Below are positions 25,994 through 35,402 of a DNA stretch of 64,000 nucleotides, piece by piece; positions within the stretch are counted from its first letter, which is position 1, and each line of letters begins with the position of its first letter. Source of the DNA: a virus (lineage: Duplodnaviria > Caudoviricetes); the IMG/VR virus record IMGVR_UViG_3300005611_000001. One strand, written 5' to 3'. Below the pieces are notes generated by a model that did not search any database, was not told where the DNA came from, and saw nothing but the letters and a program-made list of their open reading frames with translations. A program made the translations under genes and the position numbers.

Positions 25994-26644
25994 ATGAGTG
26001 AAGTGAATCTAATTGCGCTGAGCAAGCCTAGCGCAATGACGGGTTGCCATACTGCAGAAGAACTGGTCGCGTATGCTGCGCGCGTGAGCAACCCTGGCAA
26101 TCAGAACAATGCAAAGACTGCACCCAAGTTGCTGAAGTATCTGATTCAAAACGAGCATTGGTCGCCTCTTGAGATGGTGCATATTACCATGGAGATCAAG
26201 ACCACACGCGACATCTCACGGCAGGTATTGCGGCACAGGAGTTTTTCCTTTCAAGAGTTTAGTCAGCGCTATGCTGTATCGGAAAACTTCACCACGCGCG
26301 AATCTCGGCTTCAAGACCCTAAGAATCGACAGAACTCCATTGAGACTGACGACAAGCACCTTGCTGAGAAGTGGAATATGCTTCAGCAAAATGTAATCAA
26401 TCATGCTAAAAACGCCTATCAGTGGGCACTGATGAACGGCATTGCCAAAGAGCAAGCACGAGCAGTGTTACCCGAAGGCAACACCGAGACAACTCTGTAC
26501 ATGGCTGGTTCGCTTCGCTCGTGGATTCACTACTGCCAGTTGCGCATGGCAAACGGTACTCAGAAAGAGCATATGGAAGTGGCTCGCAAGTGTTGGGAGA
26601 TTATCGTTGGTCACTTTCCCGCTATCAAAGAGGCTCTAGAATGA
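25994..26644 (+). CDS. thyX: flavin-dependent thymidylate synthase
   Basis: EHWSPLE, RHRSFSFQEFSQRY, ARAVLP, TQKEH. Confidence 0.95.
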   Translation: MSEVNLIALSKPSAMTGCHTAEELVAYAARVSNPGNQNNAKTAPKLLKYLIQNEHWSPLEMVHITMEIKTTRDISRQVLRHRSFSFQEFSQRYAVSENFTTRESRLQDPKNRQNSIETDDKHLAEKWNMLQQNVINHAKNAYQWALMNGIAKEQARAVLPEGNTETTLYMAGSLRSWIHYCQLRMANGTQKEHMEVARKCWEIIVGHFPAIKEALE

Positions 26645-26790
26645 ACGGAAAGAAAGCAAAGTTGTTGCGTAAAGTAGGTAAAGTTGTACGACGAGAAAAA
26701 AAACTGTATAATACGCTGTCGCATCAAGAGAAAGCCATTCTCAGTGAAATTTATGAATCCGTTTTAGAGAAAAACAAGCCGAGCGAATAA
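26641..26790 (+). CDS. 49-aa basic hypothetical protein
   Basis: MNGKKAKLLRK...; coupled on both sides. Confidence 0.55.
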   Translation: MNGKKAKLLRKVGKVVRREKKLYNTLSHQEKAILSEIYESVLEKNKPSE

Positions 26791-30169: not shown

Positions 30170-30196
30170 AAAAGGGCGCTTCGGCGCCCTTTTTTT
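30170..30196. terminator. bidirectional terminator
   Basis: AAAAGGGCGC-TTCG-GCGCCCTTTTTTT between convergent genes. Confidence 0.9.
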
Positions 30197-31526
30197 ATGC
30201 TCCCGCGTAAGCGTCTGCGCGCGTACCGTTTGACTGAGTAGGAGAAGGTAGAGACATATCACCGCCCATCATTGTCTGATTGCTGACGCTTGTAGGTGCG
30301 TTAGTGTTGTTATTGATAACAGTGATGTTACCTACAGAAGCTGCTTGTTCAGCCACATTTCGTTCCATTTGTTCTCTTCTCGCGGCTGCTCGTGTGCGAG
30401 GTCTTCTTATTTGAGCTTGAACTTCTTCGGGCGTAATTGCTGGAGTAGCAGCAATTGGGGTGCCGATGTCTTCAGCAGCAACAGCTGTTGCACCCGGAAC
30501 AGTTGGCGCACCAGCAGTATTAGCAGGAAGTGTTGCAGCCGCAGCAGTAGCAGCTGCGGCTTTTCTTTGACCGCGCCCTGTAATTGTTGCGCTAGCATTT
30601 GGGTCGTAGTCAATTTCAAAGCCAAATGATCGAAGCTTTTCAGCAAAGCCATCAAATCCAAACTTGTCTGCTACCCATGCAATACCATCTTTGATAAGGT
30701 CAAGCGGCATCATGATCAGCCCATTGATCAGACCAATTATTCCGCCTATAGCACCTGAAATTACTTTTTCACCAAAGTTGCCTTCTTTCTCTTGAAACCC
30801 TTTTACCGCACCGTTGACTATATCAACAATACTCAATAAAAATCCTAAAGGAACAAAGAGTCTACCGACTGCTGCACCAAATGCACGAATAGCACCGAAG
30901 AATTTTCCAAACGTTGCGCCTATCTTACTAAAAACACCACCAACGGCTTCTGCACCATCAGTGATTGGTCTAAAAATTTTCGCTAAAGCACCATCTGGAT
31001 CAAAGAAATTTTTTAATGCAGTGAACTTTTCACTTACAAAATTACCAAACTTTGTGAAAGGCTTGACAATATAATCATCGAAGTAAACATACGTTGTCGT
31101 AACAAGGTCATCAAGCATCGTGAAAAGTCTTGAGCCTCTTCCAAATTTAGTCTCTAACATTTCGGAGATTGGTCTGAAAAGATTTGGAATTTTGACTGCT
31201 CTGAAGATTGCTCGTACAGAATCGAAAACACCTTCAACAAATCCTAAAGCAAGTGCAGGCAAAGTAACTAAGCCACCAATAGCCAGCCCACCGAGCCCAC
31301 CGAATGTTGGTGTCGGCGCGGGTCCACCTGCGTCTGGTGCTGCTCCTGGAACAGGCGCTAGAGAAGGTGCAGGTGTAGCAACTGTTTTTATTTCGCGCAT
31401 CATTTCAAGCATGTCTAGCTTGTCTGCGCGGAGCATTGCGAAAAACTCTAAGAAACGATTATCGATTTCGTCTAATCGTAGATTCGTTTCTTCTTGTTCT
31501 TCAATTAAGTCTCTAAGCGTTGCCAT
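30195..31526 (-). CDS. probable tail length determinant / hub protein (gp29-like position)
   Basis: Helical amphipathic low-complexity core, ends NNNTNAPT..N; follows gp26/51. Confidence 0.6.
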   Translation of the reverse strand: MATLRDLIEEQEETNLRLDEIDNRFLEFFAMLRADKLDMLEMMREIKTVATPAPSLAPVPGAAPDAGGPAPTPTFGGLGGLAIGGLVTLPALALGFVEGVFDSVRAIFRAVKIPNLFRPISEMLETKFGRGSRLFTMLDDLVTTTYVYFDDYIVKPFTKFGNFVSEKFTALKNFFDPDGALAKIFRPITDGAEAVGGVFSKIGATFGKFFGAIRAFGAAVGRLFVPLGFLLSIVDIVNGAVKGFQEKEGNFGEKVISGAIGGIIGLINGLIMMPLDLIKDGIAWVADKFGFDGFAEKLRSFGFEIDYDPNASATITGRGQRKAAAATAAAATLPANTAGAPTVPGATAVAAEDIGTPIAATPAITPEEVQAQIRRPRTRAAARREQMERNVAEQAASVGNITVINNNTNAPTSVSNQTMMGGDMSLPSPTQSNGTRADAYAGA

Positions 31527-31704
31527 TGGCTGCCTCTCTCGCTTGTTTTTCTTCTTCTAAAGCCTGCAGTAACAGAATAATGTATATCTCTCGCTCCCAA
31601 ACCATCATGTTTTCTAATTCTGTTAGTGAGTATTTATGATGCCTTTGTAATAAAAAGTTAGTTTTAAAATGATTTGCTAAATCATCATGAGAGAGGCATA
31701 CTAA
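31513..31704 (-). CDS. gp51: gp51-like C-terminal domain, -1 frame, no upstream start codon
   Basis: LVCLSHDDLANHFKTNFLLQRHHKYSLTELENMMVWEREIYIILLLQALEEEK...; abuts T-TTT-TTT slippery run at 31704-31710. Confidence 0.75.
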   Translation of the reverse strand, partial: LVCLSHDDLANHFKTNFLLQRHHKYSLTELENMMVWEREIYIILLLQALEEEKQAREAANGNA

Positions 31705-32393
31705 AAAAAACTTTGAAGACCTTTCAATTCAAGTGTGTTGTGTTCTCCACATTTTTCACAATCAAACCCAATCGTGTGTTTGACTTGTGGCATTTCTAGT
31801 AGAAAAGAAGAGACGCTTTCGAACTGTTCTTTTGTCATAGACTCAAGAAATGCCCGAACATTTTCTGGTGTTTCATCTTCAATGTCAATTCTCTCATCTT
31901 CTGTTATTACCGCACTCAAGCTATTCGCTAGAACATTAAATCCCATTTCATTTTCATCACCATTAAGATCGATATTTCTGTAGCTAGGGTATTTCATTTC
32001 TACGGTGATTTTTTCATCAATATCAATCAATTTGTTTTTTGTACTTTTCGAACATTGTATTTCTTCTAAATTGATTGTATGTTCATTAGCTTCTTGACAA
32101 TGAACGCAATTGAGATTTATCGTAGAAAGTTCTCCTACTGATTTTGATCGCAATTTGATAAAAATATATTCGATGTCAAAAGTTGTTAGACTGTCAATGT
32201 TGACATCTTGTTGAATACAAGATTTAATTGTATCCAGAATGGCGTTGAGCATTTCGGTGCTGTCACGAGTTTCTGCTGCCATCATTAGAATTTTTTCTTC
32301 TTTGACAAGATAAGGTCTGAACTTGATTTTCTTGCCTGTCGAAGGTATTTCTAATTCATATTTTGGTGTGTCATTTAGTGTAGGTAATGCCAT
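31701..32393 (-). CDS. gp26: T4-like baseplate hub assembly protein (gp26 family)
   Basis: MALP....PKYEL.IPSTGKKIKFRP.LVKEEKIL, DIEYIF..LRSKSVGE, CxxC x2, ends GLQSFF. Confidence 0.85.
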   Translation of the reverse strand: MALPTLNDTPKYELEIPSTGKKIKFRPYLVKEEKILMMAAETRDSTEMLNAILDTIKSCIQQDVNIDSLTTFDIEYIFIKLRSKSVGELSTINLNCVHCQEANEHTINLEEIQCSKSTKNKLIDIDEKITVEMKYPSYRNIDLNGDENEMGFNVLANSLSAVITEDERIDIEDETPENVRAFLESMTKEQFESVSSFLLEMPQVKHTIGFDCEKCGEHNTLELKGLQSFF

Positions 32394-32406: not shown

Positions 32407-33090
32407 TTAAATATTAGCTGCCACTGCTCCCAATACTCCTGCAAGTGCATTTTTAAGTTTGCCTTTGGGTTGTAACTTCTCGCCTTCCCAATATTGATAA
32501 GAAAATTCTATATTGATTTGGCTGATTTCATTTGTTGCACCATCATTAAAAGTCTCATGAGTAACACTTATAGGATAAGCGCGATCAAGAGTCCATTTAT
32601 AATTCTTTTCTAATTGTGTACCAATGTCTAAATCGAAACTTAGATTGATCGGGCCAAGGCTCACATCTTTGTTAAAGATTGGATAACTCACACCTTTTTC
32701 TAATTGATAGATTTCGATTTTTTTACAATAAGTATCTGGGTAAGCTGAGCTATATCTTCCTTCAACATCATCGTATTTACTTAAAGATAGCTCTTGCCAT
32801 ATTTCAAAATACTCTCTTACCGCTTGATTGTTTAAAACGCGGAAATTCATATTTACATTTGGGTTTACAAATCCATACACAACATCTTGCTTGACAACAC
32901 CTAGCTCACGTTGTACACTAGTTAGCTGGCGTGATGGCAATGTAACATTGGTGCATAATACACCATATTCGTAAGAACTTGTTTCTGGCTGTAATGACGG
33001 AAGGTGAACATAGTATAGATTTGTACGAGCAAATCCTCTACCATCGGTCGCGATTGCTTTAAGTTCTTCGACTGTTCCTGATCTAAGCAT
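32407..33090 (-). CDS. gp54: tail tube initiator gp54-like
   Basis: GFARTNLY.V, LC.NV.LPSR, L..AYP.SV, I.FSY..W. Confidence 0.7.
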   Translation of the reverse strand: MLRSGTVEELKAIATDGRGFARTNLYYVHLPSLQPETSSYEYGVLCTNVTLPSRQLTSVQRELGVVKQDVVYGFVNPNVNMNFRVLNNQAVREYFEIWQELSLSKYDDVEGRYSSAYPDTYCKKIEIYQLEKGVSYPIFNKDVSLGPINLSFDLDIGTQLEKNYKWTLDRAYPISVTHETFNDGATNEISQINIEFSYQYWEGEKLQPKGKLKNALAGVLGAVAANI

Positions 33091-34155: not shown

Positions 34156-34163
34156 TATAAATA
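34156..34163 (+). promoter_or_regulatory. T4-type late promoter
   Basis: TATAAATA upstream of gp48-like gene. Confidence 0.85.
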
Positions 34164-34196: not shown

Positions 34197-35402
34197 ATGG
34201 TAGACAATAGAAAGAGAGCCCAAGCTCAAAGAGCGCGCAATTTTCAAAAAGACAGAGAGCAGAGTCAAGAAAATCAAACTGCTACCGAAACTGTTGTCAT
34301 TGCGGAAGAAAAATCAACCGACGAACAGAACAAACAGGCGATTGATCCTGATGTTACGGCGCTTGAAAAAGTAAGACGCGACTTAAAATATCCACTTACA
34401 ATTTCAAGCAATTATCCTGCAAGAATTATTTTTAAAGCAATTGAAGTCGAGGGTGTAAACATAGGTGAAAAAATTGGTGATAGCTTTTCTTCTCTTGCAA
34501 AAAAATTCACAAACTTTTTTTCGTCTGAAGCTGAAGCTGTAGAAGGGGCAACAACTTCTATTTCTGACGGAAAGGTTGAAGCAGGCACCAAGCAAAGACT
34601 AGAAGAGCTTGAGCAAGCTGGAAATGATTTTAGTCAATCGTTCGATAATGTTAGCGCTAGCAATCTTGTTGTAGGTACTGTAACGCTTCCTCTTCAGCGT
34701 GATTTGAGATTTAGCGATAATGCACAATACGAAACAGCAAATCTTGGAGTCCTTGGTGGTGCGTTAGAACAAGGAATTCAAGGCAGAAACGCATTTGCCG
34801 GAATCACACAAAACAATCAATTGGTTCAAACTGCTTCTGCAATTGCAGCTTCAGCGGTTGCAAAAGGTGTTGGTGAAGCAGCAGGTGCTGCAATCGGTGC
34901 GACCGTTGCGAGGGGTCCAGGTGCTGTACTAGGTGTGGCTGCGCTTGGCGGTGCGTTCGAAGGCCTTTCTCCTGCTGTACGAAGCGCTACTCGCATTGCA
35001 ACTGCACCTAATCAGCGTACACTGTTTCAGCAAGTGAACATTCGAAACTTTGCCTTTACTTTTAAAATGGTCGCAAACAATCAAAGAGAAGCTGAAGAAA
35101 TTAAAAGCATTGTACAGTTTTTCAGACAAGAACTTTATCCCGAAAAAATACCTTTAGGCGAAACTGGTGTGCCCTTGGGCTATAAGTTTCCAAACATGTT
35201 CGAAATTGAAATCAAAAACAGACTTGATCGAAATCCAGCGTTCAAAATTCAGCGTTGTTATTTGCGCGATGTTCAAACATCATTTAACCCAACAGCAACT
35301 GGTATGCACGATGATGGTAGTTTTGTTGAGGTGGATATATCTCTAGCATTTCAAGAAATTGTTGCACTTGATAAAGCAAAAGTTAGGGATGGTGAATACT
35401 AA
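34197..35402 (+). CDS. gp48: baseplate tail-tube cap gp48-like
   Basis: YPL, PNQRTLF....R.F.FTFKM, YP, YKFPN.F.I, CYL..V..SFNP. Confidence 0.75.
   Translation: MVDNRKRAQAQRARNFQKDREQSQENQTATETVVIAEEKSTDEQNKQAIDPDVTALEKVRRDLKYPLTISSNYPARIIFKAIEVEGVNIGEKIGDSFSSLAKKFTNFFSSEAEAVEGATTSISDGKVEAGTKQRLEELEQAGNDFSQSFDNVSASNLVVGTVTLPLQRDLRFSDNAQYETANLGVLGGALEQGIQGRNAFAGITQNNQLVQTASAIAASAVAKGVGEAAGAAIGATVARGPGAVLGVAALGGAFEGLSPAVRSATRIATAPNQRTLFQQVNIRNFAFTFKMVANNQREAEEIKSIVQFFRQELYPEKIPLGETGVPLGYKFPNMFEIEIKNRLDRNPAFKIQRCYLRDVQTSFNPTATGMHDDGSFVEVDISLAFQEIVALDKAKVRDGEY

Follow-up and report, generated by a model that had tools for sequence, protein, structure and literature searches.

A conserved run of T probably joins gp26 to a start-less gp51 module in an uncultured T4-like phage and suggests two tail assembly chaperone forms from one locus

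Introduction

Where the gp26 gene of an uncultured phage ends in a run of eight T, a module related to gp51 of phage T4 continues in the -1 reading frame with no start codon of its own. This raises the question of how the gp51 module is translated, and as part of which protein. The locus lies in a stretch of 64,000 nucleotides of the IMG/VR virus record IMGVR_UViG_3300005611_000001; this whole stretch is called the window here, and all coordinates refer to it. An earlier reading of the letters alone (the sequence-only reading) had proposed a programmed -1 frameshift that joins the two parts. In our analysis, the locus very probably gives rise to two forms of a tail assembly chaperone, one short and one long, through -1 recoding at the T run. 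Judged by its sequence, it is a member of the T4 gp26/gp51 family (PF12322; phrog_150, phrog_634) from an uncultured lineage.

The junction of gp26 and the gp51 module

The locus comprises the following features:

31701 to 32393 (including TAG at 31701-31703), minus strand: gp26 open reading frame of 230 amino acids, the short chaperone form (TAC-N), taken from the list of open reading frames and PF12322
31704 to 31710, minus strand: slippery heptamer T TTT TTT, which the gp26 frame reads as X XXY YYZ, with the 0-frame TAG directly after it
31513 to 31704, minus strand: C-terminal gp51 module (the -1 extension), 63 codons and a stop, from translation and phrog_634
31513 to 32393, minus strand: predicted long form of 293 amino acids (230 + 63), in which gp26 and the gp51 module are joined after ...GLQSFF by conceptual -1 fusion

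All genes around the gp26 locus are on the minus strand. The gp26 open reading frame matches PF12322 (T4_baseplate) at 2e-60 over profile positions 2-218 of 219 (cut-off 24.5 bits) and phrog_150 at 1.2e-61, and its identity to any isolate is only about 40%. It ends in CAA AGT TTT TTT TAG, with the T8 run at 31703-31710, just as the sequence-only reading had it. The -1 frame, open from 31725 (six codons upstream) until it meets a stop at 31513-31515, has the sequence ...SSKFFLVCLSHDDLANHFKTNFLLQRHHKYSLTELENMMVWERE.... This extension matches phrog_634, 'baseplate hub assembly catalyst' (gp51), at 1.7e-23. It also matches positions 229-277 of the 282 of phrog_150, a part that lies beyond the reach of gp26 itself. 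In a tblastn search, the gp51 module had matches in 493 phage records. The window holds one gp26 and one gp51 module; a second gp26 paralogue, sought inside the 64-kb window only, was not found.

Ahead of the Met-Met at 31608 the -1 frame of the window contains no ATG, GTG or TTG. The conceptual fusion runs ...GLQSFF and then LVCLSHDD..., and the predicted junction peptide is ...SFFLVCLSHDDLANHFK. The domain in the -1 frame, the junction peptide and the lack of a start codon thus agree with what had been described. It had also been remarked that MQHHKY, a supposed annotated start in homologues, reads LLQRHHKY here. The second half of this remark holds for the window; as for the first, the starts annotated in the records that were opened lie 4-6 codons after the heptamer.

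A T8 run is a rare element in this DNA. Compared with 13.9 expected from shuffled sequences the window has two, and one of the two is the end of gp26. The only other 8-base homopolymer of the window is an A8 on the plus strand (26696-26703). Its context, GAA AAA AAA CTG, is an in-phase A AAA AAA heptamer in a small plus-strand open reading frame with an apparent start at 26641.

Contigs of three DNA runs, each from a different study, and of a metatranscriptome run all cross the T8 run without a single gap. As these contigs differ from the window by 2-16 substitutions, they represent independent strains or assemblies. An IMG/VR contig from another metagenome, 99% identical to the window (L011), has the same T8. 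A homopolymer error, which the sequence-only reading wanted ruled out, is thus excluded for practical purposes.

Conservation in related phages

For comparison, 89 related loci were collected: 80 from IMG/VR and 9 from isolate phages (six cyanophages, Sinorhizobium phiN3, Vibrio ValKK3 and Stenotrophomonas DLP6). Removal of duplicates left 66 distinct junctions. The gp51 module was found by tblastn in 88 of the 89 loci, and in all of them but L087 its frame is offset by -1 from that of gp26. ValKK3 was missed by tblastn, and inspection by eye showed the same arrangement of gp26 and -1 module. In L087, an IMG/VR contig from an old metagenome, the frame is broken inside the gp51 module (L087:2196-2290) and the heptamer is intact; an indel from assembly or sequencing is the probable cause.

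An in-phase T TTT TTN (X XXY YYZ) is present in all 66 distinct junctions, 0-2 codons ahead of the gp26 stop. In 31 of them the 0-frame stop follows the heptamer directly. The last base of the heptamer is T in 32 junctions, C in 29 and A in 5, and never G. The T run itself consists of six T in 34 junctions, seven in 18 and eight in 14. Conservation of both the slippery run and the -1 offset, which had been named as a check, is therefore complete among the distinct junctions (66/66).

The heptamer is kept at synonymous sites as well. In 66/66 junctions the codon before its Phe pair ends in T (AGT, AAT, GAT, TCT or GGT) and the first of the two Phe codons is TTT; in the remainder of these genes the shares are about 72% for a final T and about 71% for TTT. 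The GC-richer phage DLP6 is the clearest case: elsewhere its gp26 uses TTC 11 times and TTT never, and AAC four times and AAT never; the junction nonetheless reads AAT TTT TTC.

Most of the 66 junctions have no start codon nearby, and where one is present its position is never conserved. In eight junctions a -1 frame stop lies directly 5' of the heptamer. Four of the nine isolate records (S-H9-1, S-CAM1, S-SSM4 and ACG-2014i) leave the gp51 module unannotated, which we attribute to the absence of a start codon near the junction, and none of the nine contains a joined gp26-gp51 coding sequence.

Comparison with T4, lambda and dnaX

In T4 the two parts exist as two proteins. T4 gp26 (208 amino acids) consists of PF12322 only, whereas T4 gp51 (249 amino acids) has PF12322 at residues 1-201 and a C-terminal extension, with residues 147-246 matching phrog_634. 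The conceptual fusion of the window (293 amino acids) is collinear with T4 gp51 from end to end, right across the junction. The statement in the sequence-only reading that T4 gp51 is the fused form of the two parts is thus borne out. T4 gp26 ends three residues past the shared G-L-x-x-F-F motif. Its FF codons read GAG TTC TTT, which is not slippery, and the matching spot of T4 gene 51 has no T run either. As T4 encodes the same FF without a T run, the slippery run is retained only if a -1 extension comes next.

The two types also differ in gene arrangement. In T4, the two chaperone forms are encoded by two separate, divergently transcribed genes; in the window there is one overlapping locus. 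The position ahead of the tape measure is alike in both: T4 gp51 lies just upstream of genes 27-28-29, of which 29 encodes the tape measure, and in the window a tape-measure-like gene follows directly. Single-open-reading-frame gp51 of the T4 type occurs in about 1375 records, from enterobacterial, Acinetobacter and Aeromonas phages. To the split type, gp26 with a -1 module, belong cyanophages, phages of Vibrio, Sinorhizobium and Stenotrophomonas, and others.

That tail assembly chaperone genes share a conserved -1 frameshift was reportedly described by Xu, Hendrix and Duda in 2004. The window locus resembles lambda gpG/gpGT in that two frames overlap in the interval from the tail tube gene to the tape measure gene, that the short open reading frame has an X XXY YYZ heptamer close to its end, and that both forms have the N-terminus in common; the predicted fold leans towards the chaperone type by its match to HK97 2ob9 (Z 6.6). 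It differs from lambda in that its proteins have no sequence similarity to those of lambda. The N-terminal part is about twice as long as that of lambda and carries an extra helical domain and a zinc-ribbon-like unit of four Cys, and the heptamer is oligo-T and not of the lambda type, G GGA AAG. With E. coli dnaX the locus shares a heptamer of a single repeated base and, in many relatives, a possible Shine-Dalgarno-like stimulator about 10 nucleotides upstream. In contrast to dnaX, the relatives have no conserved downstream stem-loop and the Shine-Dalgarno-like element of the window is weak. Moreover, the dnaX shift truncates the protein, whereas the shift at the window locus would extend it.

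Predicted fold of gp26

The structure of gp26 was modelled with AlphaFold2 from 24 homologues (mean predicted local distance difference test score 82.7). When residues 1-90 of the model were compared with 48,161 chains by VIA-align, the top matches were 3fgx (Z 7.9) and Bacillus YqbN, 3klu (Z 6.7). Third came 2ob9, the tail assembly chaperone of HK97 (Z 6.6, 85/104 residues), and unrelated rows reached Z values of 4.6 at most. A Foldseek search of the gp26 model against the PDB gave no match. The model comparison leans towards a tail-assembly-chaperone-like fold of the N-domain and does not amount to proof.

Beyond the N-domain the model has a helical domain and a unit formed from two distant CxxC pairs. 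The four cysteines (C96, C99, C212, C215) are invariant in 24 homologues of the clade to which the window belongs. The predicted unit is zinc-ribbon-like, with VIA matches to LysW, ZitP and NrdR (Z about 3). The Cys pairs are kept at aligned positions in T4 gp26 and gp51 and lost in the cyanophages S-PM2 and P-RSM6.

Proposed mechanism and possible stimulators

We infer the following course of events, in which the occurrence of the shift, its ribosomal nature, its rate and the binding partners of the products are all conditional. Most ribosomes would translate gp26 (230 amino acids) and terminate at the TAG that adjoins the T run. The smaller share would slip back by one base on U UUU UUU, where both Phe-tRNAs could re-pair with UUU. 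Alternatively, a slip in the P site while UAG waits in the A site would give the same product. The shifted ribosomes would read 63 further codons in the -1 frame and produce a protein of 293 amino acids whose layout is collinear with that of T4 gp51. As the analogy to lambda G/GT suggests, the two forms may cooperate on the tape-measure-like protein and bring in the tail tube, and the virion would be expected to contain neither.

One possible stimulator of the shift is the 0-frame stop that adjoins the heptamer. Another is a putative Shine-Dalgarno-like element:

31720 to 31724, minus strand: AAAGG, 9 nucleotides upstream of the heptamer, with a duplex energy of -3.4 kcal/mol with the anti-Shine-Dalgarno sequence

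In the relatives, the corresponding element about 10 nucleotides upstream has a mean of -6.3 kcal/mol; the rest of the gene gives -1.6, and synonymously recoded sequences give -4.8. As the loci are related and not independent, the nominal p-value of this enrichment is inflated. Local folds downstream of the heptamer have a mean z of -1.0. Some cyanophages have strong hairpins 5-9 nucleotides past the heptamer (z from -1.4 to -3.5); in P-RSM6, S-H9-1, S-CAM1 and S-PM2 (L001-L004), where they come after TTTTTTC, they reach -14 to -18 kcal/mol with z from -1.5 to -3.5. The sequences of these hairpins differ among the phages, and the clade of the window has no equivalent. Along with the runs of only six T in over half of the relatives, the cyanophage hairpins and the upstream enrichment speak for a shift of the ribosome in particular.

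Weighing of the alternatives

Several findings weigh against a ribosomal shift between two chaperone forms. The matches to chaperone folds all have Z values below 8 and are not decisive alone. The Shine-Dalgarno-like element of the window is weak, and its enrichment in the family is mostly explained by the conserved x-G-L residues. The fold downstream of the heptamer is unremarkable in the window (-5.4 kcal/mol, z -0.6), and RNAalifold found no conserved downstream RNA structure in 40 junctions. Finally, every site is oligo-T and no other heptamer type occurs in the 66 junctions, which is also what slippage of the RNA polymerase would need. If the polymerase stuttered on the oligo-T/A tract and added one U to some of the mRNAs, a single-frame gp26-gp51 fusion would result and the ribosome would not slip at all. 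The missing downstream structure in the 40 relatives, the invariance of a pure homopolymer of 6-8 T, with the window in the longest class (T8), and the absence of any heptamer that is not oligo-T are in line with this alternative. Slippage of bacterial RNA polymerase, as in Thermus dnaX, Shigella mxiE and insertion sequence (IS) elements, is appreciable only at about 8-9 or more bases. Yet 34 of the 66 junctions have only six T, and in 29 the seventh base is C, although a T would lengthen the run and leave the Phe unchanged. The T8 of the window is shorter than the nine or more A/T or so expected for such slippage, with low-level slippage still compatible. Just one RNA contig spans the site, and it shows the T8 of the genome; this carries little weight since contigs drop rare variants. 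Transcriptional slippage is therefore a possible but rather unlikely source of the long form, and we moderately favour a ribosomal shift over it.

That the gp51 module is a separate small protein of about 30-65 amino acids, made from a non-canonical start near the junction or from the internal Met-Met and never fused to gp26, would suit the many database records that annotate a short gp51 of 53-63 amino acids, and the MM of ENMM is indeed conserved. The window, however, has no ATG, GTG or TTG before this MM, which lies past the midpoint of the conserved module. The relatives mostly lack a start codon near the junction and never have one at a conserved position, and in eight junctions the -1 stop directly before the heptamer closes the frame. 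The conserved stretch of the module sets in with the first codon past the heptamer and corresponds to an internal part of T4 gp51. Furthermore, a separate protein leaves the upkeep of the heptamer at synonymous sites unexplained, even in a GC-rich phage. We consider this alternative very improbable. Still less credence, practically none, is due to an artefact or decay, i. e. to a true gene with nine T in a single open reading frame that was miscounted, or to a broken gene. Homopolymers are error-prone and L087 does have a frame break inside the module; but the contigs of four independent runs and one independent contig with 99% identity give T8 without a gap, and the same -1 offset recurs in 66/66 distinct junctions, finished isolate genomes included.

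With -1 recoding at the T run as the preferred explanation, a further proposal can be made tentatively, and we regard it as rather doubtful. The chaperone shift of T4-like phages may form a distinct class, with an oligo-U heptamer that is aided by an adjacent 0-frame stop and a dnaX-like upstream Shine-Dalgarno-like element and by no downstream structure; or else slippage of RNA polymerase on only 6-8 T may account for the long form in part or in full. If true, the latter would mean slippage on a tract shorter than bacterial polymerases usually require, and either would go beyond the confirmed published work.

Genes flanking the locus

Two further open reading frames border the locus:

32407 to 33090, minus strand: open reading frame of the tail tube (gp19-like) family, 227 amino acids (phrog_45, 1.7e-21; PF06841 below threshold)
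30195 to 31526, minus strand: tape-measure-like open reading frame, 443 amino acids (weak matches to phrog_1535, 5e-6, and phrog_58, 3e-5)

The gene order, tail tube family, gp26/gp51 and tape-measure-like, is the canonical one. The start of the tape-measure-like frame overlaps the end of the -1 extension by 14 nucleotides. The 443-amino-acid frame had no match in Pfam or NCBIfam, and in BLASTP its similarity to T4 gp29 was not significant (E 0.14); NCBIfam gave no match for any of the four proteins searched. For its position the frame is short, as the cyanophage counterparts exceed 800 amino acids (P-RSM6 about 836, S-PM2 1167), some of them annotated as endolysin.

The sequence-only reading had further pointed to a late-promoter variant embedded in the HHKY codons. 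The motif CATAAATA is present at 31631-31638; a role as a promoter is not supported. ATAAATA occurs 20 times in the window compared with 14.8 expected and is not enriched, and in the relatives the motif goes with the H-K-Y codons, while synonymous positions show no retention of it. Another ATAAATA (34157-34163, plus strand) lies 34 nucleotides upstream of the ATG of a 401-amino-acid open reading frame at 34197, a more plausible position for a late promoter of the T4 type.

Relation to published work and significance

Vladimirov, Gautam and Davidson (Virology, 2022) reportedly recognized that the gp26/gp51 genes of T4-like phages encode their tail assembly chaperones. A passage of a later paper that cites them states that some T4-like phages have one short and one longer fused gene in place of frameshifting (PMC10274946), and a passage of another refers to T4-like phages whose TAC-N genes carry polyT -1 frameshift signals (PMC12846349). 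As these citing passages already ascribe it to the 2022 study, the idea that the G/GT strategy extends to T4-like myoviruses is supported by our results but is not new. As far as the passages describe the published genes, they belong to the same family as the window locus, with the same short and long reading and a polyT -1 signal, and nothing of substance differs. Beside the published T4-like members, the traits of the window's own are the uncultured lineage and a T8 run with UAG directly after it. Beyond the 2022 study and the papers citing it, the literature searches gave no other report of a gp26/gp51 frameshift, nor anything further on transcriptional slippage together with tail assembly chaperones.

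What the locus still contributes concerns annotation and the question of ribosomal versus transcriptional slippage. Since none of the nine isolate records has a joined coding sequence and four leave the module unannotated, the annotation of Kyanoviridae and related phages could be corrected. The gp51 of cyanophages and marine vibriophages has been noted to lack the first 200 or so residues (Sullivan et al. 2010, PMC3037559); the -1 extension would explain this 'truncated' look of gp51 in marine T4-like phages. With two forms made from one locus, T4-like phages would fall under the near-universal rule of long-tailed phages that the tail assembly chaperone is made in both a short and a long form.

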